From: Acidobacteriota bacterium
GTDB lineage: Bacteria > Acidobacteriota > UBA6911 > JACQSX01
Direction of reading: 5' to 3'
Length of the DNA: 64,000 bases
NCBI GenBank assembly: GCA_036507075.1
Contig: DASXQR010000146.1
Location: 32,001-96,000 of the forward strand
Position numbers and translations under genes: made by a program
Notes under the pieces: model-generated
Told to the model about the DNA's origin: nothing
Seen by the model: the letters and a program-made list of their open reading frames with translations, nothing else
The model's database searches: none
Part shown: in pieces, positions 1 to 34,871 of the stretch
Numbering within the stretch: the first letter of the stretch is position 1
Layout of the letters: each line of letters begins with the position of its first letter

Positions 1-1493
1 AGGTGCTCTGTTGAAAAGAACTCATTTCCCGGCCATTGATCGTCGATAATAGAAAATGGCAGGGACCCAAAGCGCTCCCGTAATTCCTTGCGTGTCTTTT
101 TCTCGTCCAGGGCTTTTTCCGGCTCTTCTTGAGCAAGATTCTTTGCCGTTTTGTCTGCGAGATCATCGAGTCGGCGCTCACGCTCCTCGGCGGGAATATC
201 GCGTCCCGCTCGCGGTTTCACAGAGGTTTTTTCCGCTTCTGCAGCGATTTCCTCTGCCGCGTTATGAACGCCTTTCTGCTGTTTCTCCGCATTCGCTGTC
301 TCGCCCCACTTCTTTCGAATACGGCCAACCAGGGTTTCCATAACAGGTCGAATGATCTTACGAAGGTCGTGACGCAATTCCTCTACGGGTTCCACGCCGC
401 GTTTAACATTACGAACTCGAAACGCTTCGTCGAGCACAGGGTCAAAGGATATTTCAATCCCAATAAACCGTGCAATTTCACGCACACCATCGGGGTAGAA
501 CCGCGGAATGATGTCAAAGAAAATTTCCCGATTCGCACGAACCACCGAAAGGGGCTCGTTTTCAATAATACGGCGTTCGCGATTGAACGTAGTCTCAGCG
601 CCGGAGCCCCTCTTTGGTCTCCACTGTTCGGGCAAGAGTGTTATTCTGACCTTAATCGGTGCCATCACGGTTGGATCGCTAGCGAGCGGCCAGGGAACCT
701 CTTCGTCAAATTCGAGTGTGGCTTTGGGATCGTCGGCAAAGCGCGAGTCGAGCAGGTAGAGGGGATCGTGCGCCGCTACGGGCGCACCGTTAACCTCAAT
801 GACTCTTCCGCCGGCTAGAAAATACCTATAAGTGCGCGCGACCCACTTGATCAAATCAGTCTGGACGCGATCAATGGTTCGAACATCCTTTGCCTTCAGT
901 GCCTTGCGGGAACTCGCTTGTGGTGCGACCGAAAGACGATCGCATTTCGACCAGACGACGAGCGTACCTGAGGTTTTCGAGTTCGGTAAATCAGCAAATT
1001 CTGCTGGTAGATCGCGCGCTTCGGGGGTAATCATCTGTGTGAGAGTGCCCTCCGCGATTTCATCCAAGTCTATGTATGTGTAGAGAAAAGGGCCGCTGGA
1101 GTTGTCGCGGCTGTACACCTCGACTCGACGGCATTGGCTGATGGCGCCAAGAGTACCGCCGACACCGAAACGCCCCATACCCTTTCGGCTGTTATACCGT
1201 GTCGATTCACCAAGTACTAGACACCTCTGCAAAACGTCCGCCGGCATGCCAATACCGTCGTCACTAATCGCGATCTTATCTACAACCGTCAGCGATTCTG
1301 ATTTCTTGCCTTTTTGGATTGTTTGGAGGGTCTCTATTAAACGCACCCTTATCTCGTTTGCGCCTGCTTCGAACGCGTTGTCAAGAGGCTCACCAATCGC
1401 CGCTTCCAGCGTGTAGCCGGAGGAGCGGAGTGAGTTTAGAGCTTTGTCGACACGAATTAACGGCACCGGTTCGACTAATGTTGTTGTTGCCAT
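1..1493 (-). CDS. MORC-like GHKL ATPase (HATPase_c_3), runs off the left edge; absent from the ORF track
   Basis: Manual translation from ATG at 1493 (SD AAGGAG at about 1503-1508): MATTTLVEPVPLIRVDKALNSLRSSGYTLEAAIGEPLDNAFEAGA...ISDDGIGM...GRFGVG, i.e. the GHKL E-x-x-x-N, DxGxG and GRFGxG motifs. The same frame is open at the window edge (...SIIDDQWPGNEFFSTEH). Confidence 0.88.
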   Translation of the reverse strand, partial: MATTTLVEPVPLIRVDKALNSLRSSGYTLEAAIGEPLDNAFEAGANEIRVRLIETLQTIQKGKKSESLTVVDKIAISDDGIGMPADVLQRCLVLGESTRYNSRKGMGRFGVGGTLGAISQCRRVEVYSRDNSSGPFLYTYIDLDEIAEGTLTQMITPEARDLPAEFADLPNSKTSGTLVVWSKCDRLSVAPQASSRKALKAKDVRTIDRVQTDLIKWVARTYRYFLAGGRVIEVNGAPVAAHDPLYLLDSRFADDPKATLEFDEEVPWPLASDPTVMAPIKVRITLLPEQWRPKRGSGAETTFNRERRIIENEPLSVVRANREIFFDIIPRFYPDGVREIARFIGIEISFDPVLDEAFRVRNVKRGVEPVEELRHDLRKIIRPVMETLVGRIRKKWGETANAEKQQKGVHNAAEEIAAEAEKTSVKPRAGRDIPAEERERRLDDLADKTAKNLAQEEPEKALDEKKTRKELRERFGSLPFSIIDDQWPGNEFFSTEH

Positions 1494-2216: not shown

Positions 2217-2393
2217 ATGGCAACTTTCGTGATCTACGAAGATACACGGAAAGAGTACAGGTGGCGCTTGGTGTCGAACAATGGAAGAATCATCGCAGAT
2301 TCTGCCGAAGGATACAGCACCAAGTCCGGCTGCCGTACCGCTGTGGACCTCGTAAAAACGGAGGCACCAACGGCCCACGTCGTAGAAAAATAA
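2217..2393 (+). CDS. DUF1508/YegP (UPF0339) family small protein, 58 aa; absent from the ORF track
   Basis: MATFVIYEDTRKEYRWRLVSNNGRIIADSAEGYSTKSGCRTAVDLVK matches the F.iy.d..geyRWRL.a.NG.iIA.s.EgY family signature; purine-rich SD upstream. Confidence 0.9.
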   Translation: MATFVIYEDTRKEYRWRLVSNNGRIIADSAEGYSTKSGCRTAVDLVKTEAPTAHVVEK

Positions 2394-2402
2394 CGCTCGG
2401 CT

Positions 2403-2431
2403 CGGGGGCTCGGCAACCTGTTGAGCCCCCG
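2403..2431 (+). terminator. GC-rich hairpin after the DUF1508 gene
   Basis: cgggggctc...gagcccccg inverted repeat directly after the stop; no clear U-tract. Confidence 0.45.
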
Positions 2432-2508
2432 GGTGACCGCCACAAGAACGGAAAGGTGGTCTGGAGATTTTCGACAGGAACTGAGAAGGACAGCGACTCA
2501 ACGTGGAA

Positions 2509-2536
2509 TTGACACTAACTTTGAAACGCGTACACT
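2509..2536 (+). promoter_or_regulatory. Sigma70-type promoter of the caspase-helicase gene
   Basis: TTGACA (2509-2514), 16-nt spacer, TACACT (2531-2536), 18 nt before ATG 2555. Confidence 0.6.
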
Positions 2537-2554
2537 TTAATTACTTGTCTTGAT

Positions 2555-5500
2555 ATGTCCTTCAAAAGCGTTTTTATCGGCATCGACCGATACCAATCTT
2601 CCCTGATTTCCAATCTCTCGTGCTCGGTACGTGACGCGAAGGCGCTTCACGGGCTTTTCGGTGACGCCTTCGGCACCTCGGAGTCGCTTCTGCTGACTAA
2701 CGAACTAGCAACTCGTTCCGCAATTCTCAAAGGCATCCAGAATCTTCAACTGGCGAGCCCTGACGATGTTGTGGTTATCGGCTTTTCTGGCCATGGGTCG
2801 GACTCGCACCACCTGATTACATACGATGCTGATCCGCTCACTCTCGACGCAACAGCGATACACTTGGACGAACTCACAGATCTATTTTCCAGAATCCCCG
2901 CAGCAAATCTAGTGTTACTACTTGACTGCTGCTTCGCTGGTGGCGCTGGGTCGAAGGTCTTTCATGCTCCTGTGGCAGCAAAGGCACCAGCCTCAGCAGA
3001 GGCACTCTTAAATAAAATTAGCGGGAGAGGGCGGATAATATTCACCGCCGCGACTGCTGACCAAGAAGCCATTGAAGATCGGCGGCGAGGCCACGGCTTG
3101 TTTACATTTTATGTTATCGAGGGCCTCCGAGGTGCACCGGAAATCGTGAAAGCCGGCAGTATACCGGTATTGTCTCTACTGCAATTTGTCTCTCAATCAG
3201 TTATCGAAGCGGCACGGCAAATTCGGCATCAGCAGGAGCCAACCGTTAAGGGTGTCGTTGAAGGCGAATTGAGATTTCCAGTCCTCGCGCCCGGACCGAT
3301 TTACAAAGGATTTTTCCCCGAGTGCGCAGCCACGCCGGTCGGGCCAGCCATCAGTGATTTGGTTAATTTTGGATTTCCGCCGCCAATCATTCAGATTCTG
3401 CAAACCGCGATTCCTTCTCTTAATGAGCTTCAGCAGGACGCGATCAATAAAGCAGGTCTATTCGACGGGCAGCATCTGGTCGTTTCCGCGCCAACCACGT
3501 CTGGTAAGACAATGATTGGCGAACTGGCTGCGCTGCACGGTTTTACAAAAGGCGAGCGCAGTTACATGTTGTTGCCGCTGAGGGCGCTGGTCAATGACAA
3601 ATACGACGAATTCACGGCCAAGTATGGTTCCTTTGGTCTTCGAATAATTCGCTCAACAGGCGAAATCGCCGACGACAACGACTCCTTACTCCGTGGTAAG
3701 TTCGATATCGCATTCCTAACGTACGAGCGATTTGCAGCTCTCGCTCTAACCGTCCCTCACATTATGCGCCAAGTTGGCGTGATCGTTATCGACGAAGTGC
3801 AAATGATCACAGACCGTAATCGGGGCGCCAATCTTGAATTTGTGCTCACATTACTAAAAGCGCAACGGCTTTTGGGCATCGAGCCACAGATGATTGCTCT
3901 CTCAGCAGTGATTGGTGACACGAACGGTTTCGAATCGTGGCTTAATGCGCGCCTCCTGTACACGGAGAAGCGACCTGTGCCGCTTGATGAGGGCCTCATC
4001 GACATGAACGGAGCGTTCCGCTACGTGTCAGAGGCGGGTAAGGAAGAAGTCATCAATAATTATGCGCGACCTGAGTACCGAAAGGGGTCATCGCAGGACA
4101 TCATCATTCCACTTGTGCGGCAGTTGGTCGCTGGCGGAGAGAAGGTTATCGTCTTTCGTGAGACAAAGCCGATTGTGCGAGCAACAGCTGAGTATTTGAA
4201 GAATAACTTGGGTCTTTCTCAAGCGATCGAAACTTTAAACCTGCTTCCTATGGGTGACCCATCTGCTGCGTCGGCACAACTTCGCGGGTGCCTGGAGCAC
4301 GGTGTTGGCTTTCATAACGCCGATCTTGATCGCGAGGAGCGACAGGCTATTGAGGCGACTTTTCGGGATCCGGCCAGCTCTTTGAAAGTGCTTGTTGCGA
4401 CCACTACTCTGGCGATGGGCGTGAATACACCCGCTTGGTCGGTGGTAATCGCAGGTCTTGAGCATCCCGGTTCTCCGTACAGCGTGGCCGAATATAAGAA
4501 TATGGTCGGCCGAGCCGGCCGGCTCGGGTTCACCCCTAAAGGGAAGTCATTTTTAGTTGCGCCGACCCAGGCCGATGCTTACCATCTGTGGAATACATAT
4601 GTTCTGGGCAAACCTGAATCGCTGGTTTCGCGGTTTTCAGATCAGGAACCATTGTCGCTCGTCTGCCGCGTACTCGCAACCGCGGCAGCTTCAAAGGCCA
4701 ATAGTCTCTCCGAACAGGAGCTTGTAGACTTCATTCATTCGACCTTTGCGGCGCATCAGAAAGGACAGTATCTTGACGCCGCGACAGTCTCAGGAACTTT
4801 AGAGCGACTCCTTGGAGGGGGGCTGGTCGAACGGATCGACGACCGCTACCGATTGACTGAACTGGGTAAGGTAGCTGGAGAATTGGGTATTCAGGTCGAA
4901 AGTGTTGTGCGCATTTCACGATCCCTTCGTGGGCTCTCCGCTGGCGAACTAACAGATACCGTCTTATTGGCAGCCGCTCAGACTGCCGTGGAATTGGATG
5001 AAGTGATTTTTCCCGTTCATAGAACATCGACAAAGGAACGGGATCGCTGGCAGGGTGCCGTACGCCAACAGCATTTGCCACCCTCGGTGGCAAGCGAACT
5101 TCGGGCGATTGACGGTCGTGGCTACACCGCGCGATGTAAGCGTCTGTCGGCCGTCTTGATGTGGATCGACGGTGTAGAGCTCAATCGAATGGAGGCCTCA
5201 CTCTTACTGCACTTGCCTGGAGACAATGCAGCTGGACCGATCCGTGCATCGGCGGAGCGAACGCGCGACTTGATCGGGGTCGTCACTCGAATTGGTACAC
5301 TGGTGTCTACTAATGAAGGTTCTGAACCTAGTAATCAAATCGACCAACTTAGCATTCGACTGGAACTGGGCATTCCTGTTGATATGTTGTGGCTTGCAAA
5401 AGAGCTCAAGCGAAGTTTAGAGCGTGGAGACTACCTTGCTTTGCGGCGAGCTGGTTTAACTACCGTAGAAGCAATTGACGCGGCTGACAAAAGTGCCCTG

Positions 5501-5632
5501 GCGCGTGTAATAACGGGCGATGTAAAAATCAAGCGGATTCGCGAGGCTATTGAAAGGATTAAGCAAGCCAAACCTGTAAACACCGATGATCTGCCAATGC
5601 CTCTGCCAGCAATGCGGGCGGGCGAAACTTGA
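2555..5632 (+). CDS. Caspase-like (peptidase C14) domain fused to a Ski2/Hel308-like SF2 helicase
   Basis: N-terminal FSGHG and LLDCCFAG His/Cys dyad; helicase motifs Q (LNELQ), I (APTTSGKT), Ia (PLRALV), II (DEVQ), V (ATTTLAMGVN), VI (MVGRAGR), then a wHTH/ratchet-like region. Confidence 0.92.
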   Translation: MSFKSVFIGIDRYQSSLISNLSCSVRDAKALHGLFGDAFGTSESLLLTNELATRSAILKGIQNLQLASPDDVVVIGFSGHGSDSHHLITYDADPLTLDATAIHLDELTDLFSRIPAANLVLLLDCCFAGGAGSKVFHAPVAAKAPASAEALLNKISGRGRIIFTAATADQEAIEDRRRGHGLFTFYVIEGLRGAPEIVKAGSIPVLSLLQFVSQSVIEAARQIRHQQEPTVKGVVEGELRFPVLAPGPIYKGFFPECAATPVGPAISDLVNFGFPPPIIQILQTAIPSLNELQQDAINKAGLFDGQHLVVSAPTTSGKTMIGELAALHGFTKGERSYMLLPLRALVNDKYDEFTAKYGSFGLRIIRSTGEIADDNDSLLRGKFDIAFLTYERFAALALTVPHIMRQVGVIVIDEVQMITDRNRGANLEFVLTLLKAQRLLGIEPQMIALSAVIGDTNGFESWLNARLLYTEKRPVPLDEGLIDMNGAFRYVSEAGKEEVINNYARPEYRKGSSQDIIIPLVRQLVAGGEKVIVFRETKPIVRATAEYLKNNLGLSQAIETLNLLPMGDPSAASAQLRGCLEHGVGFHNADLDREERQAIEATFRDPASSLKVLVATTTLAMGVNTPAWSVVIAGLEHPGSPYSVAEYKNMVGRAGRLGFTPKGKSFLVAPTQADAYHLWNTYVLGKPESLVSRFSDQEPLSLVCRVLATAAASKANSLSEQELVDFIHSTFAAHQKGQYLDAATVSGTLERLLGGGLVERIDDRYRLTELGKVAGELGIQVESVVRISRSLRGLSAGELTDTVLLAAAQTAVELDEVIFPVHRTSTKERDRWQGAVRQQHLPPSVASELRAIDGRGYTARCKRLSAVLMWIDGVELNRMEASLLLHLPGDNAAGPIRASAERTRDLIGVVTRIGTLVSTNEGSEPSNQIDQLSIRLELGIPVDMLWLAKELKRSLERGDYLALRRAGLTTVEAIDAADKSALARVITGDVKIKRIREAIERIKQAKPVNTDDLPMPLPAMRAGET

Positions 5633-5663
5633 TAACTTCCGGCGCAAATAGTCCGGGCCCGAC

Positions 5664-7220
5664 TCAAGCTGCTATACTCAGATCATCATTCTCCTCCTGA
5701 CCCCGAACGGCAATAGGGGTTTTCTGCAAAATCATTTCAATTTTGGGGATAAGCTCGTCCCAAGTTCGAAGTCTGTCCCGAAGTGGGCTGCCAGTTGAAT
5801 ATTCAAAGCGATTTGCGATGAGATCAAAGGGAACTTTTAGCATAAACTCCGCATTTTTTCCGATCACGAGCCGGTTCGAAGTCAGGTTTTCCACCAAATC
5901 GCGCTTTTTGTCCAAAATTGCAGTTTTGTACGCAGAATAAGCACTTCCGGCGAGTTCGAGGAATCGCGCAAGCCGATCGTGAAGCGAGGTCCCACCACGG
6001 CTTAAATCCACCAATTTTTCCTCCACATCCCTCTTCGTTCCCAGAAGAGCGTTTTTGCGCTGAACGAACGTGTCCTGATCGACGAGGCGGTCAATGTAAG
6101 CGTCGGTCAGGCGGGCGAAACGCTCCTGAATTGCCGACAACTGCAGGTTCAGCGAATCGATCAGTTGTTTTTGGAGACGGATCCAATCCGCCTTGATCTG
6201 CGAGAGTTTTTGCCGGAGATAAGCCTGCTCAGGGGCGCTGAACCGGAGAAGGAATAATTTCTGAACCAGGCTGTTTTCCACCGCCTCTTCCCGAATGGCG
6301 GTAGTTGGACAAGAAGCGGTATGGCAACGGTAATAGATATGCCCTTTCTGCTTTTCTCCGACCAGCGAGTAATTACATAGCTTGCATTTGAGCAAACGCC
6401 GAAACAGGAACTCGTGCTTTTGACTGCGAATGTTGAACTTGCCATCCAATACTGACTGGACGCTATCAAACAGGGCTTTCGACACGACCGGCTCATGCAC
6501 GCCGGGGAAATGTTCCCCGGTACGGCGCAAACGTATGACGCCGGTGTAAAACGGATTGCGGAGAATCGTTGAAAGCCCGTTGCGGGAAACTTCATTGCCC
6601 CGGCGGGTGCGCAGTCCGAGGCGAAAAAGCTCGTCACCTAAAGTATCTAGATTATGTCTGGCGGTTGAGTAAAGCTCGAAGGCCCGCCGAATGAGCGGCG
6701 CTCGCACCGGGTCAGGACTTTTTGGTTTGCCGGGACCAATGTCCGAATAGCCGAGAGGGGCCTGCATGGGCAGCAGCCCTTGGTTGAGCCGCCCATAAAA
6801 GCCCTTGCGCGTCTCTTCCCGCAAATTACGAATGTAGTCGGCTGCAACTACGGCCTGAATGTCGGCCGAAAGACGACCGCCACGCGAACGCAGGTCCAGA
6901 CTCTCGTTGGCAAAGAAGATCTCTATGCCTTGGTCGATGAGTTCACCAAGATCCGCCCAGTCTTTGAGGTTGCGCGCCCCTCGGTCGATTTTGTGGATGA
7001 TCACGCCAGCGGCGCTGCCCCGGCGAAGCAGCTTAAGCATTCTGTTGAAAACCGGTCGGCCGCGCTTGGCCGCAGTTTCGCGTTCCTCAAACCATTGGCA
7101 CACGGTCAAATTGTTTCGCGCGGCGAAGCGCTCGATGGCGGCGCGCTGTTCCTGCAGCGAAACGCCGCGTTCGCCCTGTTTGGGCGTAGAGACGCGAATG
7201 TAGGCAAAACATTGCCGCAT
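5664..7220 (-). CDS. Large serine recombinase (resolvase, recombinase, zinc ribbon and coiled-coil domains)
   Basis: YIRVST catalytic Ser, DRGARN, LRNPFYTG, CKLC...YYRC...C zinc ribbon. Confidence 0.95.
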   Translation of the reverse strand: MRQCFAYIRVSTPKQGERGVSLQEQRAAIERFAARNNLTVCQWFEERETAAKRGRPVFNRMLKLLRRGSAAGVIIHKIDRGARNLKDWADLGELIDQGIEIFFANESLDLRSRGGRLSADIQAVVAADYIRNLREETRKGFYGRLNQGLLPMQAPLGYSDIGPGKPKSPDPVRAPLIRRAFELYSTARHNLDTLGDELFRLGLRTRRGNEVSRNGLSTILRNPFYTGVIRLRRTGEHFPGVHEPVVSKALFDSVQSVLDGKFNIRSQKHEFLFRRLLKCKLCNYSLVGEKQKGHIYYRCHTASCPTTAIREEAVENSLVQKLFLLRFSAPEQAYLRQKLSQIKADWIRLQKQLIDSLNLQLSAIQERFARLTDAYIDRLVDQDTFVQRKNALLGTKRDVEEKLVDLSRGGTSLHDRLARFLELAGSAYSAYKTAILDKKRDLVENLTSNRLVIGKNAEFMLKVPFDLIANRFEYSTGSPLRDRLRTWDELIPKIEMILQKTPIAVRGQEENDDLSIAA

Positions 7221-7283
7221 AAAAAGGAAAAATATGGCGTTAAAAGGCGGGTTCTTGGAGGCCCGGTCGCAGGTTACCTCGGA

Positions 7284-7460
7284 TTACCAAGGAACGTCAA
7301 AGTTGTTATCCCCAGAGCGCCCAGCCTCGAGTCGCTCAAAGATCTGCCAAACCACGGTTAAATAACGCTCCAGGTTTTCTTCGGCTTCCTTGAGTTGCTG
7401 GTCGTTAAGCTCGGGATAAAGCTCGCGCAAGGTTGGAACCTTATCAGGGGCCTTGCTCAT
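7284..7460 (-). CDS. Small hypothetical protein upstream of the serine recombinase
   Basis: MSKAPDKVPTLRELYPELNDQQLKEAEENLERYLTVVWQIFERL is helical and co-oriented with the recombinase; start placed at ATG 7460. Confidence 0.65.
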   Translation of the reverse strand: MSKAPDKVPTLRELYPELNDQQLKEAEENLERYLTVVWQIFERLEAGRSGDNNFDVPW

Positions 7461-7494
7461 CTGGTCAACATAAACGAGATTGCAAGCGTTGGAT

Positions 7495-8500
7495 AGACGG
7501 GAAAACTTGAATCGCAGTACCCCCTGAATCCGAATCAAGTTTTCCCGCCTAGAAAATTTTCCCGCAGAGCGCGATGATCCGAGCCGCAATGCATCCCATT
7601 GACTACATCCTGGAATTTCTTTATGAAGCAATTCGAATTATTCTTGTCGAAGAGCTGCATGTTCACGTGCGCTCGAAAATGCTGCGCTGTCGGCGGCGGC
7701 GCATGCGCCGTGTCGCGCCACTTCCCCTACATGAGCGACGACGGTCTGTGCAATGTTATCTACAGGCGCAGTGCCGAATTCGCTTGCGCCAGCACTTTGA
7801 GCTGCTTCGCGATCCCTAGCCAGATTCAACTTTTCCCTCCTTTTTTCAAATCCGCCGGGTTGCTATGGTGAACGTACACGCCGAAAGCTTCCCACTTTGA
7901 GTTCTGCGCCTTGAGTACCTCCTGGTCCGCAGGGCGGAGAGTTCAATTTGAATCGGAGGGAGAAATGAGAATCAGGGAAATCTCGGTCAGGTATGCGGCA
8001 AGCGAAGTTAGGTTGGAGGAAGGCGAAAGCTTTAGAAATTCCCGACAGGTCTTTGAGGCGTTCAGGCAGTTGGCACTGGAGCCGGTCGAAGTCTTCAGAG
8101 TCATCCTTTTGGACGGCAAGAACCGAATGCTCTTTTATGAGGACATCAGCCGGGGCAGTCTAACCGGGGCCTTGGTTCATCCGCGCGAAGTCTTCTGGTC
8201 AGCCATTCACCACCGAGCCGCGGCCATTATTTGCCTTCACAATCATCCTTCGGGTGATCCTGAGCCGTCGGCGGAAGATCGTGAAATCACAGCCCGGCTG
8301 AAGCAAGCAGGTGACCTGCTCGGAATTCGGGTGCTCGACCACATCGTAATCGGCGACGGTTGTTACGTCAGTTTCCAGGATCGCGGCGAACTTTAGAGCT
8401 TGCTGGATTGCGGTGATAAGGCGGGTGTTAAGGCGAAAAGCTTGCACCCGCCGTCGCTTTTTCAACCGGACCCCCTACTCGCATTCAAGTTTTCCCGCCT
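7495..8500. repeat. 16-bp motif TCAAGTTTTCCCGCCT: direct copies at 7535-7550 and 8485-8500, inverted 15/16 copy at 7495-7510
   Basis: Read directly from the sequence. Confidence 0.85.
7965..8396 (+). CDS. radC: RadC-like JAB domain protein
   Basis: VHPREVF, HNHPSGDPEPSAED, VLDHIVIG; ATG 7965 preceded by GGAGG. Confidence 0.93.
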   Translation: MRIREISVRYAASEVRLEEGESFRNSRQVFEAFRQLALEPVEVFRVILLDGKNRMLFYEDISRGSLTGALVHPREVFWSAIHHRAAAIICLHNHPSGDPEPSAEDREITARLKQAGDLLGIRVLDHIVIGDGCYVSFQDRGEL

Positions 8501-8547
8501 TTTACCAAATCCTCTGAACCTATACATTGAGAATTAGCAAAACCAAT

Positions 8548-8844
8548 ATGAAACAAAACACAAATTCACATCCAAACCAACTCGTGGTTTACCGAATGCG
8601 GATGAAATTCAGTCAAAGCCGCGTGGCCCGACTCTTGGGCCACAAAAATGAGGAGATGCTGTCCCGTTACGAGCACGGGCGATCCTTGCCGCCCTTGCTG
8701 ACCGCCTTGAAACTGGAAATTATCTATCGCGTGCCGGTGGCTTTCCTCTATCCGGAACTTTACGAAACTTTGCGTAATCGAATTCGCGCCGAGGAAGGGA
8801 AACTCTCCGTCCGGGGTCTTCAACAAGCCCTGCCCTTGAATTAA
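8548..8844 (+). CDS. XRE-family HTH regulator
   Basis: SQSRVARLLG...LSRYEHGRSLP...LEIIY. Confidence 0.85.
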   Translation: MKQNTNSHPNQLVVYRMRMKFSQSRVARLLGHKNEEMLSRYEHGRSLPPLLTALKLEIIYRVPVAFLYPELYETLRNRIRAEEGKLSVRGLQQALPLN

Positions 8845-8855
8845 CCGCAAGACAA

Positions 8856-9149
8856 ATGACCAAGATTCTTGATCGTCTCAGCTCGCCACAAGACCGCTTC
8901 CACCCGCAGACGGCCAAAGAGTTTTTCGCGTTGCAGCTTGCCCGCAAGCTGGGAGCCCTGGACCGAGTTGGTCACTTTGTGTTGCTGGTCGACCAATATT
9001 CACAAGGAACACTGCTGCGGATCTACCGGAGGGCTCGCAAGACTCAGCAAGGAACAACGGGGCTGGCAGACCGCTTCGAGGCGGAATTGGCGCATATCAA
9101 CCACAAGGAGGAAGGTAATGACTCACAAGTTAGCCGCCATCAAGGTTGA
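8856..9149 (+). CDS. Hypothetical helical protein of the element core
   Basis: Tightly packed in the operon between the HTH and RuvC-like genes. Confidence 0.6.
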   Translation: MTKILDRLSSPQDRFHPQTAKEFFALQLARKLGALDRVGHFVLLVDQYSQGTLLRIYRRARKTQQGTTGLADRFEAELAHINHKEEGNDSQVSRHQG

Positions 9150-9582
9150 GCGGCGAAGCGTGGCGACGGCCGTCTTTGTCGGCGACAGACTGGACTACGT
9201 GCAACGACGCCAACTTTCATCTGCGCCATCAAAGGCCGAAGCCAGTGCCGTGGGTTTTGTCAATTGGACCGTCAATACGTTTGAAATTCACTCGGTCGCG
9301 CTTGAGGCCGTAACCAATGGAGACGTGCGCCGCGTCCAACTAACAGAATCGATCCTGAAAATGCTTCGGGAAAACGGCGTCCCCATCTGGAAATTGTCAA
9401 AGCAGGACATGTTTGCCGCTTACGGAATCCCACCGCTTCGCACGCGTCGGGAGTTGTGGAAAGTAATTCTGTCGATCTGGCCGATTCTTGACCGCGGTGA
9501 GCAAGGAAACGACGGCATTTTGGACGCCGCGGCGTTGGGTCTGCTGGTTGCTACTGAACGCCTGCTCCTTACAGAGACCTGA
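9118..9582 (+). CDS. RuvC/RNase H-fold-like protein, first catalytic Asp replaced
   Basis: SD AAGGAGG before ATG 9118; LAAIKVERRSVATAVF / VALE / SKQDM / DAAAL aligns by eye with RuvC motifs I-III. Confidence 0.6.
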   Translation: MTHKLAAIKVERRSVATAVFVGDRLDYVQRRQLSSAPSKAEASAVGFVNWTVNTFEIHSVALEAVTNGDVRRVQLTESILKMLRENGVPIWKLSKQDMFAAYGIPPLRTRRELWKVILSIWPILDRGEQGNDGILDAAALGLLVATERLLLTET

Positions 9583-9611
9583 TGGAATGAACGTGAGAGG
9601 TATTAAACAAA

Positions 9612-10424
9612 ATGACATCTTCCATGGTTGGACCCTTGAGTTACATCGGCGGCAAGAATCGCCTGGCCAAACGAATCATCGCCCTGTTTCCCGAGCACAC
9701 GACCTATGTGGAACCGTTTGCCGGCGGCGCGCAAGTGTTCTTTCACAAGGAACCGTCGCCCGTAGAAGTGCTCAACGACTTGGACTTTGAAATCGTAAAT
9801 TTCTTCCGCGTCTGTCAGTGGCACTTTGACGAATTGGTTCGCTATTTAAGATACATTCTGATCAGTCGAAAGTGGTACGAGCTGCTGTCGGCGACAAATC
9901 CAGAAACATTAACTGACATTCAGCGGGCCGGACGCTTCTTTTATCTGCAGAAGAATTGTTATGGAGGCCTCGTCGTCAACCCAACGTACCACTACGGCGT
10001 CATCAAGCCGTCAAACTACAATCCCCGGCGCATAACTGAAATAATCCAGAAAACTCACGAGCGGTTGCAAGGCGTTCAAATCGAATCGTTGCCGTACGAA
10101 AAGATCCTGGAGAAATATGACCGAAAGACCACGTTGTTCTATCTGGATCCGCCATATTGGAATCGCCGATTGTACCGTTTCAATTTCAAGGAGGAAGATT
10201 TTATCGAACTGGAAAGGCTCCTGCACGGCGTGAAAGGCAAGTTCATCTTGTCTCTGGATGACAGACCAGAAGTGCGGCAACTTTTTTCCCGCTTCTCAAT
10301 CACCGGAATTGAGCTGTCCTACACGGCACAGAGAAAAAGCGGAAACCGCTATGGAGAGGTCCTAATCATGAATTACGGCTCAGCTTCTCATCGGGAACCG
10401 CGCGCGACTGCCGCACAGATTTAG
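9612..10424 (+). CDS. Dam-like DNA N6-adenine methyltransferase
   Basis: YIGGK, YVEPFAGGA, LNDLD, YLDPPY motifs. Confidence 0.95.
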   Translation: MTSSMVGPLSYIGGKNRLAKRIIALFPEHTTYVEPFAGGAQVFFHKEPSPVEVLNDLDFEIVNFFRVCQWHFDELVRYLRYILISRKWYELLSATNPETLTDIQRAGRFFYLQKNCYGGLVVNPTYHYGVIKPSNYNPRRITEIIQKTHERLQGVQIESLPYEKILEKYDRKTTLFYLDPPYWNRRLYRFNFKEEDFIELERLLHGVKGKFILSLDDRPEVRQLFSRFSITGIELSYTAQRKSGNRYGEVLIMNYGSASHREPRATAAQI

Positions 10425-17982: not shown

Positions 17983-19263
17983 GTGTTGCTCACAATGAAC
18001 ACAGAGTATGTCATTGACGCCCTAAGCATCTGCAAAGAAAGGCCCGGCCAGACAAGGCTTTCCATACTGCTTACGCTATTGCTTGAACTAAGACGACGTG
18101 GTGATTTGTTCTTCTGTGTCTTCGATCAGTCAGCATTTCACGAGTTTAATAAAAGGGGGGGTACACAGTCGAAGCTGTACCAACAACTTCGAAGACATCC
18201 TAAATATTTTTCTCAAGTGCGCGGTCAGGCAGATGTCAAGATTCTTGACCTTGCCGAGCGGAATCACTCACGGATCATTAGTAACGACAATTTTCGGGAG
18301 CACCGGGCAGCTTACCGTTGGTTGCAATCAGACAAAGATCGTCTAATAAACGTTAGTGTAGTGAAAGATCGAATTATTTGTGAACCACTGGCTATAAACG
18401 TGTCTGAGATCACCGACGAAGCTCAACTTTGGAAGGACCTCGAGACAACTCTAGTTGGTGACGTTGTCACACCGCCGCCTCCGCAAACACTACTACGCTC
18501 CGCTAACCCATCACCAGCAAAGTCCGCGAAGGCCCAAGGAGGCGATGATTTCGTTGCTTTAACGCAGCCTTCAGGATCCCCTCCGGCAACGGGAATCCAT
18601 CAACACGCCGCGAATTCTAAAGGAGGTGCTGCAGTGGAACAGAGAATAGGAACGATAACCGAAACAAAGGCTCGTGAGCAGCTCGGAATCTTGGTACTTG
18701 ATGGATCGGGATCTATGAGTGCCCAAGGGGAGACGAATTTGACGAAAGCCGGTGAGGTCAACATCGCCGTTCAGGGTCTTATGGCGCGACTTAGAATTTC
18801 AAGGCTAAGGGAGAATTTCTATTTGGCAATTATTACTTACGATGATCAAGTTAATTCGAGCCGCCTACCGCCCACTCCAGTTACTCAGGTCGATCCGACC
18901 TCCGACTACAACCCGCTCCACGGCCATGGAAATGAGACCGCCATTGGCGATGCTCTAAATGCGGCTGCATCTGTCGCATTTCAGTTCCTGTCTGAACAAC
19001 AAAGCTTTCCCCGCTCAGTAGTAATTGTCTTAATGACTGATGGCCAAAACAATTGTGGTCAGGACCCGGTCGAGGTCGCAAATAAGATCAAAAACAGCGG
19101 CAAACGTATCACTATATGCGCTGCTGGCTATGGGAAGGGCGACGATGTGGATGCCCTAACCCTGCAAAAGCTTGTGACCGATGGCAACGGATATGTGCGT
19201 GCATACGATCCAGAAGTGCTTCGTAAGTTCTTTGAAGCAAGTATTAGCAGGGTCAGAGGCTGA
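17983..19263 (+). CDS. PIN/NYN (Zc3h12a-like) RNase domain fused to a TerY-like vWA domain
   Basis: YVIDALSI...FD...ADVKILDLA...IISNDNFREH PIN acidic motifs; Pro/Ala/Ser linker; vWA MIDAS LDGSGSM, TAIGDAL, LMTDG. Confidence 0.85.
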   Translation: MLLTMNTEYVIDALSICKERPGQTRLSILLTLLLELRRRGDLFFCVFDQSAFHEFNKRGGTQSKLYQQLRRHPKYFSQVRGQADVKILDLAERNHSRIISNDNFREHRAAYRWLQSDKDRLINVSVVKDRIICEPLAINVSEITDEAQLWKDLETTLVGDVVTPPPPQTLLRSANPSPAKSAKAQGGDDFVALTQPSGSPPATGIHQHAANSKGGAAVEQRIGTITETKAREQLGILVLDGSGSMSAQGETNLTKAGEVNIAVQGLMARLRISRLRENFYLAIITYDDQVNSSRLPPTPVTQVDPTSDYNPLHGHGNETAIGDALNAAASVAFQFLSEQQSFPRSVVIVLMTDGQNNCGQDPVEVANKIKNSGKRITICAAGYGKGDDVDALTLQKLVTDGNGYVRAYDPEVLRKFFEASISRVRG

Positions 19264-19275
19264 CATCTAAACTTC

Positions 19276-20307
19276 ATGCTTCGGAAATTCTTGCGCTGGC
19301 CGCGCATTAAAGGGCCTAACATTAAGAAGCAGCCCGACGGCGGGCTTCGTGCTGACGCACCTTTAGAAACTGCGACAAGCAGGGATTCTACACTCGCCCA
19401 ACTACCCCCAGGAACCACGTCCCTCATACCAAAAAGACCGCAAAGAGCGGCCGCTGTGAGTAGTAAGGCTGCCAAATTGACGAATGAAGATCACTGCGAC
19501 TTGTATAGGAGTGATCGGATCCTTGCGGTTGCACTTGCTGACGGCCTCGGCTCATCCGCCGACAGCTCAGTTGCTGCAAAGTTAGCTGTCAAGACTTTTT
19601 TGCACCAAGTGGAACAAGTTGATGCGGAGCTCCGAGAAGTATCAATTGCGGACCTTCACAGTTTTTGGAATCGCACGTCACAGAAAATAACAAATCACTT
19701 TCAGACTAATTTCGCCAAATATGCTGGTCTAGCGCATCCCCTTGAGACGACCTTGATTACGGTAGTCGACCAGGGAGATAGTTACCTAATCAGTTACTTG
19801 GGGAATGGCAGCATCTGGTATGTCCGGGGCGACTTCTGGGAGTTTCTGGATCGCCGTTGGCCATGGTCAATCTCCGACTTACTTATAAGTCAAAGCGTTC
19901 TCGACGATGACGGTCGTGATGCGCTCTATGGATTGATCGGTCATACCGGCCTACACGGAGAGATTCGAACACTCATAGTCAACAAAGATCATCACCGCGG
20001 TGAGATACTTATCGTGACAACAGACGGAATAAGCTCTCCAGATCACCTAAAAGTCGGCCACGACCCGAACAACAAACTGTGGCTAGAGGTTAATCCCTAC
20101 ATTGAGCGACTACTGCGTGACCACCTGCGCCGCTATCTCACGTCCAATTCGCCGAGCGTGACATGCCGTAACGGCTGCCTTCAAAAAGTCTTGGACGATT
20201 TTCTTACCGTGGAAACCTTCGATGACGACGCCAGTCTCGGTATTATTGTTTCAGACTCGGTCTTCACCTATCCCAACAGAAACCATCTGGCAGCTCATAG
20301 CAAATGA
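19276..20307 (+). CDS. PP2C-family (TerY-P type) protein phosphatase
   Basis: NEDH, ALADGLGS, LGNG, TTDGI, DDDASL motifs. Confidence 0.85.
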   Translation: MLRKFLRWPRIKGPNIKKQPDGGLRADAPLETATSRDSTLAQLPPGTTSLIPKRPQRAAAVSSKAAKLTNEDHCDLYRSDRILAVALADGLGSSADSSVAAKLAVKTFLHQVEQVDAELREVSIADLHSFWNRTSQKITNHFQTNFAKYAGLAHPLETTLITVVDQGDSYLISYLGNGSIWYVRGDFWEFLDRRWPWSISDLLISQSVLDDDGRDALYGLIGHTGLHGEIRTLIVNKDHHRGEILIVTTDGISSPDHLKVGHDPNNKLWLEVNPYIERLLRDHLRRYLTSNSPSVTCRNGCLQKVLDDFLTVETFDDDASLGIIVSDSVFTYPNRNHLAAHSK

Positions 20308-22016
20308 GGATCACAGTCCGCCCCGGCTCGTGCGTATCAACTGGTTTGTCGAATGTTCCTTCTCACAGCGAGGCGCACTCGATCCTTATACATAGTGTAC
20401 ATTTCAACGAGGGCGGTCAGGGAAAGATCTACAAAGTAGACCAGATAGACGGCAGAGGCAGTTCTGACCTAGTCTTGAAGTTGTTTGACGCTGGAATCCC
20501 TTCCACCTTGAAACAGATAGCGGCTGCAGTCCGGGACGGCATATCGTGTCACAACATTCGTCAAGTAAGCTCTCTACGAGCTCTACCCCTTTTTCTTTTT
20601 GAAGGCACGGCGTCCGGTCATGCTGTGATGGGTTATGTGATGCGCGAGGTGCCTGGCCGAGCGTTTAGCGAGATTTTGGAAGGGCACCTAGACGACTATC
20701 TCACTCTTAGCCTCAACGATCGACTCGACTTATGTCGTCAGTTTGTAGAGGGAATGTGGATCCTTTATGCTCTCACGATTGTTCATGCGGATCTAAATGG
20801 TCAGAATCTGATGATTGACCTATCTAACAGGACTCTGGCGATCATTGATGTGGACGGCGGCGCCGTCGCAAGAAGTGGCTCTGTCCCAATCGTTGTCAAA
20901 CAGGAGCCAGGATGGCTTGCTCCAGAGATATTCGCTCAGCTAAGCAGAACGATCAGGGCCGAACCTGTTTTTGTCAGCATGGAGGCAGACCTCTGGTCTA
21001 TCGCCTCTGGGGTTCACTACTTACTATTCGGAATGTCTCCCTTCTTTTTTATCGCTAATCAGCCCGACATACCTGAATATCTGCGTCGGTATCAATGGCC
21101 AGAGCACCGAGGCGTTCATACTATCGCAACAAGAAATCACCATGCTTTCCGACATTACGAGGATGTGTATTCTCAAGTGCCCGACTTGCACAGGATGTTT
21201 TTTGTGACCTTCCAAGAGGGTTATGAAAATCCGTCGCGACGAATAGCCGCATATACTTGGCTCCAGGTGATCAGCGGCGTCTTAAAGTCGACGGGTCATT
21301 CCGAACGGCGTTCTCCAGTGAAACCGCAGCCAGAGGAACCAGCTGTCGTATCGCCTCTGCCAGCCCAACCGAGACGGCCCGTTGCCCGTCCCCCGTCCCC
21401 GCTTAGGCCGCCAGTCCAAAAACCCGCTCCCAAACCACCGCCCCCAGTGATTCCTTTCGGCCCAAAACCGCCGACACTGGTGGGACAGCGCAGGCAGAGT
21501 TCGTTCACGGTGTTTGCGGTCGCTGCAATAGCGGCGATCCTCGGTGTGGCCATCGTCGCGGTTATGCTGAATCCAGACGTAACCCGGCCTTCGATAGAAA
21601 CGTTTACTGTCAACCCTGCGACCCTGCAGGCTGGTGAGCATGCCACCATTCGATGGGTTGTAAGAAACGCGGGGGAGGTCAGAATCGACAATGGCATCGG
21701 TATTGTCGCTACCAGCGGGAACATCGATATTACTCCACCGATGTCTACAGTGTATCGCCTCACTGCGACGTCATCCGTGGGTACGATCGAGGGAGAGGCT
21801 GTGGTGGCAGTTGCCGCGCCTCCGCCCCCACCGCCACAGGAGAAAACGGCCGCCGACTACGTCCAAGAGGCCAATGTTTTGTATGAAAATCGACAGTATC
21901 TCAGAGCGATAGACGCTTGTGATAAGGCATTGGTTATATCTCCCGATGATCAAGAGGCTACGCGCTTGAAAGCGCAGATCAGGAACACAATCGAGATCTT
22001 GAATGGATCGAAATGA
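20304..22016 (+). CDS. Ser/Thr kinase with Pro-rich linker, TM helix, Ig-like domain and C-terminal TPR
   Basis: EGGQGKIY, VLKLF, HADLNGQN, IIDVDG, APE, DLWS; TM FTVFAVAAIAAILGVAIVAVML; ATGA overlap with the phosphatase. Confidence 0.9.
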   Translation: MRITVRPGSCVSTGLSNVPSHSEAHSILIHSVHFNEGGQGKIYKVDQIDGRGSSDLVLKLFDAGIPSTLKQIAAAVRDGISCHNIRQVSSLRALPLFLFEGTASGHAVMGYVMREVPGRAFSEILEGHLDDYLTLSLNDRLDLCRQFVEGMWILYALTIVHADLNGQNLMIDLSNRTLAIIDVDGGAVARSGSVPIVVKQEPGWLAPEIFAQLSRTIRAEPVFVSMEADLWSIASGVHYLLFGMSPFFFIANQPDIPEYLRRYQWPEHRGVHTIATRNHHAFRHYEDVYSQVPDLHRMFFVTFQEGYENPSRRIAAYTWLQVISGVLKSTGHSERRSPVKPQPEEPAVVSPLPAQPRRPVARPPSPLRPPVQKPAPKPPPPVIPFGPKPPTLVGQRRQSSFTVFAVAAIAAILGVAIVAVMLNPDVTRPSIETFTVNPATLQAGEHATIRWVVRNAGEVRIDNGIGIVATSGNIDITPPMSTVYRLTATSSVGTIEGEAVVAVAAPPPPPPQEKTAADYVQEANVLYENRQYLRAIDACDKALVISPDDQEATRLKAQIRNTIEILNGSK

Positions 22017-30245: not shown

Positions 30246-30290
30246 CTTACAAGCAGGAGGTCCGCGGTTCGAGCCCGCGAGCGCCCACCA
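30246..30290 (+). repeat. tRNA-Val(TAC) 3' fragment, att-site copy 1
   Basis: CTTACAA-GCAGG-AGGTC-CGCGG-TTCGAGC-CCGCG-AGCGCCC-ACCA; no 5' half or D-arm upstream; identical to 47050-47094. Confidence 0.9.
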
Positions 30291-30722
30291 ATGTTTTCGA
30301 TGCTTTACGGCCATTTTTTGATGGCCTGGAAATGCCTGGGGTGAACCCCTTGGGGTGGACCCCTCCTCTGGCCGACAAACCATGGCAACTAGCGCTGCCC
30401 GATTCATCAGGGATTGCGGACTGCAAGGTGCCATCTAAGTTATCCCGAGGGTACCCAGGGAATTTGACTTTCACTTTGGCGGGGCACCTCTGGAATGACC
30501 AGAACTGGCGAGGGACAAAGTCGGCGAAAAAGACGTGCGCGGGGAGGGAAAAAACAGGTACCCAGGAGGGAAAACGCAGACTTCCGAAAACAATCTCAGT
30601 AATGGCAGCTACTTACGTACTTCACCTGTGACAGGCAAACGCAAACCCTGTTTTCCTATACGACCACACCGAGAAATTTTTCTGTATTACCCGCAACACC
30701 GGTTCCAGCATAATATGTCGTC

Positions 30723-31276: not shown

Positions 31277-33482
31277 ATGTTACCTAAAAGGAATTTCCTG
31301 GAATCTATCGGTCTGATTTTCGCCGTTTGCCTGTTGCAGGTTCCTGCATTGGCACAGGCTGGCGCGACTGGGACTGTTCACGGTGTAGTCACGCTCGAAG
31401 ACTCGGGCAAGCCCATCCACGGCGTGTCGGTCACGATCATTGAATTGCGCGCCTCGGCAGTCACCGGTGATGACGGTTCGTACGAGATCAAAAACGTGCC
31501 CCCGGGTACGTACACTGTTATGGCCCATCTGGACAGGGTTCCCGACGTTGTGCAAACCGTCCAGGTGCCGGGCGGCGCCACAGTGGAAGCCGGTTTCAAG
31601 ATCCGGCTGAGAGCCGCCGGGGAAAAAGTAACGGTAACGGCCAGCGGAAGCGAGGAGACCTTTCTCAACACGATTTCACCCGTGACCTCTCTGGACTCAA
31701 CCGACTTGCTGGAAAAAAACACTCAATCACTGGGTGAGGCGCTCGATCACGAACTGGGAATTGCCAAGCGCACATTCGGGCCCGGAACCTCCCGGCCCGT
31801 GCTGCGCGGCTTCGATGGAGACCGGGTACTTGTCTTGCAGGATGGAAATCAAATCGGATCCCTTGGCTTCCAGTCCGGCGATCATGCCGAGCCGATCGAT
31901 GTTTTGACCGTCGATAAGCTTGAAGTAGTAAAGGGCCCGGCCACACTTCTTTATGGCAGCAATGCCATCGGTGGCGTGGTCAACGCCATTACCGGGCATG
32001 AATCGGCCCACCCGGGCACACGAGGCTACGTGACAGGCGTGGCCGGCACGAATAACTATCAGGCAGGCGGCAGTGGAGGTGTCGAGTATGGCACGCACGA
32101 CTGGGTCGTCTGGGGAAACGCCGGCGGCCAGCGGTCCGGCGATTACGATACTCCCATGGGACGAATCACCAATTCCTACACACGCGACGGCAACGGCTCC
32201 GGTGGCTTTGGTTACTATCCGGGGCGCAGCTTTCTCAGCGTCGATTACACGTTAGATAAGAGGCGCTACGGCATTCCCTTTGACCCTGAAGAAGAGGATC
32301 CCGAGGTGGTATACCTGAACCCCCGCCGCCACAGTTTCCGCCTCAACGGAGGAATTCGCGATTTGAAATCCTCCATTGGCGGCGCGCAGGTTTCGGTGCA
32401 ATACAACGATTACAGGCACTCTGAAATTGACTCCTTCACCAGGGAAGTGGCAACCTCGTTTGAGAACAAGACATTCGACTACCGGGCCGTCTTCGATGAG
32501 CGAAAGGCAGGACGCCGGTCCGGCAGTTTCGGTTTCTCGGGCATACATAGAGATTACCGTTCTTCCGGGGCGGAAGCTCTCGCACCTCCGACCGTACAGG
32601 TCGCTTTCGCGCTTTTCGGCCTGCAGAAGTTCGACTTCGAACGCGTAAGTTTTCAGCTCGGTGGAAGGTTGGAACATAACGATTACAACCCAAGGGGCAT
32701 ACTGGATCGGCCCACTCCCGATCGCTCGTTTAACGGTTTTTAGGTCGGCCGGGTTGCGAGTGGCTCTCTGGAACGACGGCGCCCTCACCGCCAATTACAG
32801 CCATTCGTACCGCGCCCCGTCCCTTGAAGAGCTATACAACAACGGCCCTCACGCCGGCAATGCCACGTTCGAGATCGGGAATCCCGACTTGGAACGTGAG
32901 AAAGGCGACGGCGTTGATTTCTCGCTTCGCCATTCTTCAAGGAGGCTGAGAGCCGAAGTTAACTACTTTTACTATCACCTTGACGATTTTATTTTTCTGG
33001 CGCCTACGGGGAATATCGAAGACGGTTTGATCGAGGCAGATTATGCACAGGGGACGAGCCGATACACAGGCGCCGAGGGGCGGCTGGAAATCGGTCTGCA
33101 TCCAAATCTATGGCTCCTCTCAAAGTTGGATTACGTTAATGCCAAACTTACGGATACCGGCACGCCGCTTCCGCGCATTCCGCCTCTGCGAGGTGTAGTC
33201 GGAATTGAGGCCACGTATGGGGGATTCCGCCTTCATCCTGAGCTTGTAATGTCGAATCATCAGGAGCGGATTTTCCCGACAGAGACCCGAACGGCCGGAT
33301 CCACGGTGTTCAATTTCACAGCGTCCTACACGATCGCGCAACAGCACGACGCACACATCTTTTCAATAACCGCCTTCAACCTGGGGGACCGGTTGTATCG
33401 CAATCACCTTTCCTTCATCAAGGACTTTGCGCCGGAGATCGGACGGGGCGTGCGCATCAGCTACACAGTGAGGTTCTTCTGA
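31277..33482 (+). pseudogene. TonB-dependent receptor (ZnuD-like, N-terminal carboxypeptidase-regulatory-like domain), split by a frameshift at about 32740
   Basis: Signal peptide; plug motifs RPVLRG and EVVKGPATLLYG; barrel continues in the +1 frame (YRAPSLEELY...YTVRFF, terminal Phe). Confidence 0.85.
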
Positions 33483-33620
33483 TGTGGACGGCTGCATGTA
33501 TTCACCCAGACTGAGACTGGCGGCCGTGCCGCGAGCATTCTGATGAAAAAAACGCTCTGCGTACCAGCAATTTGATGGTGTTGGAACCGGTTCGGCGGCT
33601 CTGAGACATTTTGGGAAGTG

Positions 33621-34635: not shown

Positions 34636-34871
34636 CAGTGCAGAGATTGTGCCTCTCACCGTCTCCCACCTTTTATTCTATATTAGCGGACGCTTGCCGG
34701 AAGTCCGGTTACGTTTAGGCAGAGACCGGTGCCTGGGTTGCTAAACTTTTTTTCGTGTTTTTTCCGACTCGTCAGTTCTGTTATGCGTGCAAAGAACTGA
34801 AGGTGGTCAAAAAGCTGCTCCCCCTCTTGGATGCTACCGCGTGCGCCTGCGCGGTTTGCCCGGCAGTATCG

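Follow-up and report, generated by a model that had tools for sequence, protein, structure and literature searches.

A widespread bacterial fusion of a metacaspase-like protease and a Hel308-type helicase as a candidate single-gene defence system

Background

Several described defence systems couple a helicase that surveys DNA to a destructive enzyme, and Hachiman is the closest of them to the gene studied here. In the accessible passages of one report, the Hachiman protein HamB is a Ski2-like DNA helicase which senses DNA damage and frees the nuclease HamA, and Hel308 is stated to be absent in bacteria (PMC12278908). According to the available part of a preprint, HamA bears a trypsin-like protease in about 5% of Hachiman systems, and this protease activates a metallo-beta-lactamase (MBL) pro-nuclease (bioRxiv 2025.07.28.667249); in the available text on HamMAB, the fused protease is set free once the HamB helicase binds DNA and hydrolyses ATP (bioRxiv 2025.09.03.673762). 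Here we analyse a gene of different composition, in which a caspase-like protease and a helicase of the Hel308 type are joined in one protein. It lies in a stretch of 64,000 nucleotides, hereafter the window, from the genome of a bacterium of the phylum Acidobacteriota.

Proteases of clan CD are known as immune outputs in the type IV Thoeris caspase, canu CanA, SAVED-CHAT, Craspase (Csx29) and the proteases that activate gasdermins. The type IV Thoeris enzyme is a promiscuous, Arg-specific protease as far as the consulted part of a review goes, and Craspase resembles the present fusion in that nucleic-acid recognition is coupled to a protease. None of these proteases is triggered by a helicase fused to it; they respond to a small-molecule signal, to a complex with a guide RNA or to a partner protein.

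An original prediction for the window took the architecture to be uncharacterised and the output of the known helicase sensors to be a nuclease. The first claim holds to the extent that no functional study of a caspase-helicase fusion was found in the literature, where the supplementary tables of defence-discovery papers could list the architecture, but the combination itself had already been tabulated in censuses of orthocaspases. Of 473 cyanobacterial orthocaspases, 3 contain DEAD and Helicase_C (Table 1, PMC8283722), and DEXDc is tabulated with cyanobacterial orthocaspases (PMC7475262); the available parts of these two papers do not discuss the function of the combination. A Hel308/Ski2 fusion is likewise unmentioned in the matched passages of two large surveys of conflict systems by the Aravind group. 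The censuses offer neither genomic context nor an analysis of the family; the present work adds that the partner domain is a complete Hel308 and that relatives of the gene lie in defence islands. The second claim needs amending, as the accessible text on HamMAB already describes a protease output. The PADLOC check proposed with the prediction came out in its favour: no model in PADLOC-DB v2.0.0 covers the whole protein or both domains, the best matches being to the helicase only (PDC-M23B 3.2e-33, HamB 2.3e-29, SngC 3e-28), and the "caspase" model covers residues 8-154.

Results

A protease and a helicase in one protein

The fusion gene (P0001) occupies positions 2555..5632 of the window on the + strand and forms a single open reading frame (ORF) of 1025 amino acids (aa) with an ATG start; it is single-copy in the host genome. 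A C14 caspase/metacaspase fold takes up residues 1-245 and a five-domain Hel308-type helicase residues 275-1006. Pfam reports Peptidase_C14 at residues 6-231, DEAD at 291-453 (4.4e-22) and Helicase_C at 581-658 (1.2e-11), each above its gathering score. An AlphaFold2 model of the full-length protein, with 92 relatives as input, has a mean predicted local distance difference test (pLDDT) value of 89.9 and a predicted template modelling score (pTM) of 0.83, its weak spots being residues 129-150 and the C-terminal tail. In the conservation alignment, which holds 92 full-length relatives with 41-80% identity to the window protein, the residues H80, C125, C126, D27, D124, K318, D413, E414, Q416, R653 and R656 are invariant in 92/92, and judged by this conservation both enzyme halves are intact and strongly constrained. 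Pfam, NCBIfam, the model and the 92/92 conservation together uphold what had been predicted, namely that one 1025-aa ORF joins a C14 domain with an intact His/Cys dyad to a complete helicase.

The protease domain (2555..3289, + strand) was delimited from Pfam (PF00656 at residues 6-231, E 1.5e-13, 51.4 bits against a cut-off of 21.4) and from the model, and consists of a p20-like and a p10-like half. Modelled alone it reaches a pLDDT of 88.6 and shows a complete caspase-hemoglobinase fold with both halves present, to which metacaspases are closest. In VIA-align comparisons AtMC4 (6w8r) ranks best (Z 24.5, root-mean-square deviation 2.7, 222 aligned residues), followed by GSU0716 of Geobacter (Z 23.3), MALT1 (Z 22.6) and then metacaspase 9; caspase-3, -8 and -9 stand at about Z 20.5, and the similarity to CHAT (Z 13.9) and Csx29 (Z 8.6 and 7.1) is clan-level only. 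Foldseek returns the same families, with MALT1 at E 2.7e-12. The best solved sequence relative of the domain profile is the Trypanosoma metacaspase MCA2 (E 1e-5), and the profile alignment pairs Asp27, SGHG and DCCFSG of the fusion with MCA2 motifs (YSGHG; DCAHSG/DCGHSG). The domain thus resembles metacaspases and orthocaspases (C14B; AtMC4, TbMCA2, GSU0716) in its fold (Z 21-24.5), in its His/Cys dyad and in the motifs that contain Asp.

The catalytic His80 lies in the SGHG motif, aligned with YSGHG of MCA2, and is encoded at 2792..2794; Cys125 and Cys126, in the DCC motif formed with D124, are encoded at 2927..2932 (both + strand). C126 aligns to a position that varies between MCA2 chains, being Ala or Gly in the deposited ones; we take this position to be that of the catalytic Cys of MCA2, and those chains to be active-site mutants. 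A set of 36 domain sequences has C126 invariant and C125 at least 90% conserved, and C126 is the likely nucleophile. The equivalents of Asp27 and Asp124 presumably line the S1 pocket in Arg/Lys-specific metacaspases; both pocket Asp residues of the fusion, as well as Gly81, are invariant in 92/92, and cleavage after Arg or Lys is predicted from the alignment of the conserved Asp27 and Asp124 with MCA2. Behind the catalytic Cys follows a low-confidence loop, residues 127-150 (2933..3004, + strand), in which residues 131-150 have pLDDT values of 52-60 and which is a candidate autoprocessing linker. Its position 143 is always basic (R in 76/92 relatives, K in 16/92) amid variable columns, and by analogy with linker cleavage in metacaspases it is a candidate site at which the protein may process itself.

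The helicase (3377..5572, + strand) comprises RecA1, RecA2, winged-helix, ratchet and helix-hairpin-helix domains, as found by NCBIfam and Foldseek. Residues 275-1006 cover positions 9-710 of the 739 in NCBIfam PRK02362, an archaeal Hel308-type model (E 1.6e-89), and this coverage, along with Foldseek, gives the helicase part the five-domain architecture of Hel308. The Walker A Lys318 is encoded at 3506..3508 and motif II, DEVQ at residues 413-416, at 3791..3802 (both + strand); K318, D413, E414 and Q416 are kept in 92/92 relatives, as are R653 and R656 of motif VI. The motifs of 3'-to-5' DNA unwinding are thus intact as far as sequence can tell, and the activity is predicted from them. Structural matches point the same way. 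Foldseek places the helicase part of the model nearest to Hel308 9b15 (E 1.4e-43, template modelling (TM) score on the target 0.87), and the Hel308/Hjm structures 9b15, 2va8, 2p6r and 2zj8 reach TM(target) 0.82-0.88 over 730-760 columns, with the helicase domain of PolQ and Brr2 next. In a sequence search of the PDB, Hel308 chains match at E 8e-54 to 7e-46 (best 2zj2, 8.1e-54), the PolQ helicase at 1e-34, Brr2 at 2e-28 and HamB at 1e-20, the last over RecA1 only (residues 294-463). The nearest clusters without a caspase in a language-model search are archaeal Hel308 clusters as well.

The original label of a Ski2/Hel308-type helicase thereby stands in its Hel308 part and calls for a correction in the other, the protein being much nearer to archaeal Hel308 (8e-54) than to HamB (1e-20). 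Because the NCBIfam scores fall far below the Hel308 equivalog cut-offs (301, 239, 231 and 221 bits against 887, 891, 1200 and 1216), the fusion helicase is placed by sequence as a separate bacterial branch and not as an ortholog of archaeal Hel308. With archaeal Hel308/Hjm and the PolQ/HELQ helicase domain it shares the five-domain architecture and the motifs; it differs from Hel308/Hjm in being bacterial, accessory and mobile, in its 270-residue N-terminal protease, and in having DEVQ as motif II.

Beyond the helicase a disordered tail, residues 1007-1025 (window 5573-5629), ends in the motif LPMP in about half of 16 aligned relatives, and more distant relatives have a Pro-Asp/Glu-Tyr motif in its place. 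This tail motif may be a docking peptide.

Comparison with Hachiman and HamMAB

Hachiman and HamMAB are alike to the fusion in that a superfamily 2 helicase related to Ski2 and Hel308 acts as a sensor of DNA or genome integrity and gates an effector, a role that we infer for the fusion. In HamMAB the gated effector is also a protease, and the HamB models of PADLOC match the helicase core of the fusion. However, the protease of the fusion is a C14 metacaspase-like enzyme and not a trypsin-like one, and it is attached to the helicase and not to HamA. Its N-terminus is a caspase where HamB has a HamA-binding helical bundle, the PADLOC HamB matches being partial, and it is one gene with no encoded substrate. 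Neither HamA (DUF1837) nor a protein of the trypsin or MBL-fold family was found among the neighbours of the window gene or the 252 neighbour proteins of 45 related loci. The fusion is not Hachiman, because HamA is missing, the N-terminus is different and the helicase is nearer to Hel308.

Distribution of the family

A protein search with the fusion gave 1133 matches at E<=1e-3 among 7999 scored candidates, and the best 120 matches are nearly all about 1020 aa long, with the same three Pfam domains and 47-80% identity. In a species-level collection with one genome per species, at least 463 relatives were found among 600 pattern-matched stretches, and the best 80 loci of these were taken for all locus analyses. 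By record title these 80 come from about a dozen phyla, covering Verrucomicrobiota, Acidobacteriota, Planctomycetota, Myxococcota, a lineage of the candidate phyla radiation (CPR), Chloroflexota, Actinomycetota, Cyanobacteria, Pseudomonadota, Bacteroidota, Bacillota, Gemmatimonadota and Omnitrophota. In 63/80 loci the ORF is intact and reaches 980 aa or more, the others being broken or cut by contig ends.

Near the host itself the gene is rare. None of four other genomes of the host family has a match, and among 400 other sampled genomes of the host phylum a single one matched at E<=1e-50, with a helicase only. That ORF (G261:C28:41975-43519) has 737 aa, is 33% identical to residues 266-787 of the fusion and has no caspase.

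At the same time, 18 loci (L054-L069, L079, L080) share at least 80% protein identity across several alphaproteobacterial genera, among them Bradyrhizobium, Sphingomonas, Xanthobacter, Bosea, Afipia and Rhodopseudomonas, which points to the recent spread of one element. A gene of 453 aa stands two genes downstream of the fusion in 16 of these 18 loci. Among 72,556 plasmid records, 26 gave a match, 17 of them with a full-length copy, and 10 of the 26 are conjugative; no full-length copy was found in 50,697 phage records. Among the annotated plasmid rows listed, the product name is "DEAD/DEAH box helicase" in all but one, which reads "superfamily II helicase". Since the family is patchy among relatives of the host, spans many phyla, has near-identical copies across genera and occurs on plasmids, these sequence records mark the fusion as an accessory gene that moves horizontally.

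Related helicases with other partners

We then considered helicases beyond the fusion family. When residues 271-1025 were searched exhaustively with HMMER, 1134 representatives came up at E<=1e-30, and 74 of the best 150 match a caspase profile specific to the family. All full-length proteins within these 150 that have an N-terminal extension of about 270 residues match this profile except one, P0131. This protein has 1020 aa and a helicase part 43% identical to that of the window, with another sequence and no caspase in its N-terminal 250 residues; these residues have no Pfam match at E<=0.05, and a weak language-model hit (0.89) to clusters of adenylate/guanylate cyclases and DUF2652 is a lead only. 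Three helicase-only representatives of 730-750 aa and 40-59% identity (P0121, P0137 and P0143) may be either fragments or true caspase-less forms.

A sister group, within P0206-P0267, consists of proteins of 860-950 aa and 30-35% identity that begin directly with the helicase, have no caspase and are extended by 150-200 residues at their C-terminal end. Pfam recognises Mrr_cat there in P0256 only (E 1.6e-6) and a winged helix (Trans_reg_C) in P0216, P0255 and P0264. Single linkage by phmmer gathers 16 of 27 sister C-termini, the Mrr_cat of P0256 among them, into one cluster, and eight of the 15 C-termini linked to P0256 gave no Mrr match when rescanned with Pfam at E 0.05. An Mrr-like C-terminal domain across the sister helicases is suggested by this clustering, and the whole set hints that different effector domains may have been attached to one kind of sensor helicase.

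Genomic surroundings of the relatives

To describe the surroundings of the relatives, the window was taken together with the 80 loci, their 1759 ORFs were clustered and the loci sorted into 49 groups. No neighbour is conserved, the commonest cluster (a 519-aa serine-recombinase type) occurring in 10/49 locus groups, where the greedy ORF caller may hide small genes beneath antisense ORFs, as it did with the DUF1508 gene of the window. For one representative per group we then ran Pfam over the three nearest genes in either direction that encode 80 aa or more, which gave 45 loci and 252 proteins; L006 and L034, with a fragmented focal gene, and L022, a 2.8-kb contig with no neighbours, were left out.

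At least one defence-type domain is found within three genes of the fusion in 25/45 representative loci. As defence-type we counted restriction-modification enzymes, SMODS, SAVED, Cap15, GmrSD, Mrr, AbiV, AbiEi, TIR, STAND/NACHT, caspase/CHAT, Schlafen-AlbA2, DACNV, ThiF/E2-type modules, dCTP deaminase, AAA_15/21, DUF499 and PIN. Recombinase, transposase or relaxase genes lie within the same distance in 12/45 loci, and defence or mobile-element genes in 30/45. As control, 20 random 12-kb regions from seven complete genomes of the window's phylum were put through the same procedure, and yielded defence genes in 2/20 and defence or mobile-element genes in 4/20 (Fisher p = 8e-4 and 1e-3 against the family loci). 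The association of the relatives with defence islands and mobile elements is supported by these counts, and the enrichment that the original prediction had proposed as a check shows in this comparison.

In two loci the caspase-helicase adjoins further genes of the caspase clan. L015 has a C14 protein of 303 aa (7514-8425) next to an nSTAND1-WD40 gene, and L023 has, within 5309-9856, a C14 protein of 705 aa next to a TPR-CHAT protein.

The island carrying the gene

A tRNA-Val(tac) gene is located 8.2 kb before the window start (L082 9730-9806). A direct repeat of its 3' half at 30246..30315 (+ strand) is the likely far end of the island holding the fusion gene, and a second such repeat lies at 47050-47115; both run from the anticodon loop to about 25 nt beyond the tRNA 3' end. 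The fusion gene therefore sits inside a segment of about 38.5 kb, of the type left by integration at a tRNA gene. Both repeats have paired changes in the T-stem (GGTGG/CCACC versus CGCGG/CCGCG). The arrangement suggests that two islands, of about 38.5 kb and 16.8 kb, integrated in tandem at one tRNA-Val gene.

The segment begins with an SspB, SspC and SspD phosphorothioation module (PADLOC E 3.5e-92, 0 and 4.6e-116; L082 12309-17563, that is window -5691 to -437). It is followed on the other strand by a divergent GHKL/MORC-like ATPase of 598 aa in full and a small helix-turn-helix (HTH) gene, which could be a restriction partner of SspBCD or a separate system. The ATPase gene (3..1493, - strand; HATPase_c_3 E 1.3e-14) extends past the window start, its full ORF being L082 17697-19493, and matches MzaB weakly only. 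Next in order come the DUF1508 gene, the caspase-helicase, a large serine recombinase (5664..7220, - strand; Resolvase, Recombinase and Zn_ribbon_recom in Pfam), RadC, a Dam-type methyltransferase, a coupling-protein-like ATPase, a relaxase-like protein, a tyrosine integrase and a triad of vWA, PP2C and kinase genes; in more general terms the segment holds a type II methyltransferase, recombinases and conjugation genes. Both flanks expected for the fusion, the ATPase upstream and an integrative element's recombinase downstream, are confirmed by Pfam.

The DUF1508 gene (2217..2393, + strand) encodes 58 aa (Pfam E 3e-17) and scores 79.3 bits against NCBIfam HVO_2922 (E 1.6e-22), below the cut-off of 90. 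Directly after its stop codon a GC-rich hairpin without a U-tract is found at 2394..2439 (+ strand), with a free energy of -32.5 kcal/mol (z -4.1; 0 of 200 shuffles equally stable); it is unlisted by the terminator scan. A promoter-like site, TTGACA-16-TACACT, lies at 2509..2536 (+ strand), 18 nt before the ATG. The near-consensus promoter announced for the fusion gene thus exists as a site with 10/12 matches, but the match alone is not significant, because three sites of such quality were found in the 4.3-kb region against 2.3 expected, and it is suggestive by position only. The DUF1508 protein had also been proposed as a partner or substrate of the protease. This candidate was rejected, as tblastn of the 58-aa protein finds it in none of the 80 related loci at E<1; the stable hairpin and the promoter-like site between the two genes weaken the partnership further.

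Three co-oriented genes at 17983-22016 make up the triad mentioned above, namely a vWA protein with a weak NYN-RNase match, a PP2C phosphatase and a Ser/Thr kinase, for which PADLOC gives weak kinase matches only. Triads of vWA, phosphatase and kinase have been described as conflict systems. Elsewhere in the window a TonB-dependent receptor is apparently split into overlapping ORFs (31277-32743, Plug; 32661-33482, barrel), and right after it a group II intron reverse transcriptase/maturase is encoded on the opposite strand (33461-34669).

Discussion

The analysis makes this family a strong candidate for a defence system of a single gene, widespread and as yet uncharacterised, whose metacaspase-like protease would be under the control of a Hel308-type DNA sensor. 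Helicase-gated proteolysis is not new in principle, HamMAB being the precedent. Since the family is horizontally spread and lies in anti-phage defence islands, the fusion probably cuts proteins when its helicase meets abnormal DNA, and we infer every biochemical step of this scheme. The C-terminal helicase would load on DNA structures that are seldom accessible while the host chromosome is intact, for which 3' single-stranded tails, forks, and ends from phage or plasmid replication or from DNA damage are candidates. DNA binding and ATP turnover would then shift the N-terminal domain and in this way free or switch on the protease, which may also cleave itself behind the always-basic residue 143. 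With its metacaspase-like acidic S1 pocket (Asp27, Asp124) the protease would cut proteins of the cell or of the invader behind Arg or Lys residues, and the proteolysis would stop growth of the cell and replication of the invader. That the fusion is a one-protein, DNA-sensing system of defence or abortive infection with a protease output, carried on mobile islands, is on balance what we believe.

Several points weigh against this belief. Neither defence nor mobile-element genes are found near the fusion in 15/45 loci. The control is small, its genomes differ from the carriers, and related loci are not independent; moreover, the list of domains was drawn up after seeing the family scans and then applied to the control. 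Some of the calls are soft, namely ThiF alone, PIN alone, DUF499 and AAA_21/SMC, and without these the count is 21/45. The insignificance of the promoter-like match counts in the same direction, and the nearest helicases, Hel308 and PolQ, are repair enzymes, which makes a repair-linked role possible.

A more far-reaching version of the defence reading, which we offer tentatively and to which we give somewhat less than even weight, is that a helicase of true Hel308 architecture exists in bacteria chiefly as an immune receptor. It would read aberrant DNA, switch on its own metacaspase with no partner or second messenger, and kill or arrest the cell, and the sisters with an Mrr-like nuclease and P0131 would be effector-swapped versions of it. 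Together they would form a new and widespread family of helicase-based innate immune receptors in parallel to Hachiman.

The same residence on islands and plasmids could mean that the protein serves the mobile element, although we think this unlikely. The helicase would then sense host DNA damage or replication stress and the protease would cleave a repressor or maintenance factor, whereupon the island or plasmid would be excised or transferred, or would kill cells losing it, in parallel to RecA-stimulated or ImmA-type repressor cleavage. Element genes at 12/45 loci, the copies on 17 plasmids and the place of the window gene between recombinases and conjugation genes fit this, as do genes of M78/ImmA-like peptidase-HTH proteins near L007, L036, L046 and L076 and a LexA gene directly upstream in L044. 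However, no repressor or other gene is conserved alongside, so a dedicated substrate would differ per element, and many loci have defence genes without recognisable element-core genes. Defence systems ride mobile elements too, so this context does not discriminate.

Comparably improbable in our estimate is a housekeeping protein of repair or stress response, in which Hel308 would act at stalled forks and the protease would clear blocking proteins or trigger death after irreparable damage, with no relation to invaders. Metacaspases are linked to stress-induced death in microbes, and the closest solved relatives of the helicase are Hel308/Hjm and the PolQ helicase domain. Hachiman itself, in the accessible passages on it, responds to DNA damage (PMC12278908). 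Set against these is an accessory distribution, with 0/4 genomes of the host family and one helicase-only relative in 400 genomes of the phylum, together with near-identical copies across genera and on plasmids, neighbourhoods rich in defence and not in repair genes, and Hel308 equivalog cut-offs missed by far. Inactive caspase-like domains exist in other proteins, but that the domain is here a non-proteolytic scaffold or ligand-binding module of a specialised helicase is very hard to credit, given that His80, Cys125/126, the pocket Asp pair and Gly81 are invariant in 92/92 relatives down to 41% identity, which fits a working active site.

If the defence reading is true, no known link from DNA sensing to proteolysis of the caspase type would be simpler than the fusion, a single protein with neither a signal molecule nor a substrate encoded beside it. 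At least 463 places in the species-level collection make the family a large one, and its full-length copies on annotated plasmid records bear only generic helicase names, so that it is invisible to current defence catalogues. Hel308-type helicases, in print absent from bacteria, would then be present there as immune or conflict proteins. The fusion would also offer a tractable model of a translocating motor that gates a protease, and a DNA-activated protease might serve as a reporter or tool.

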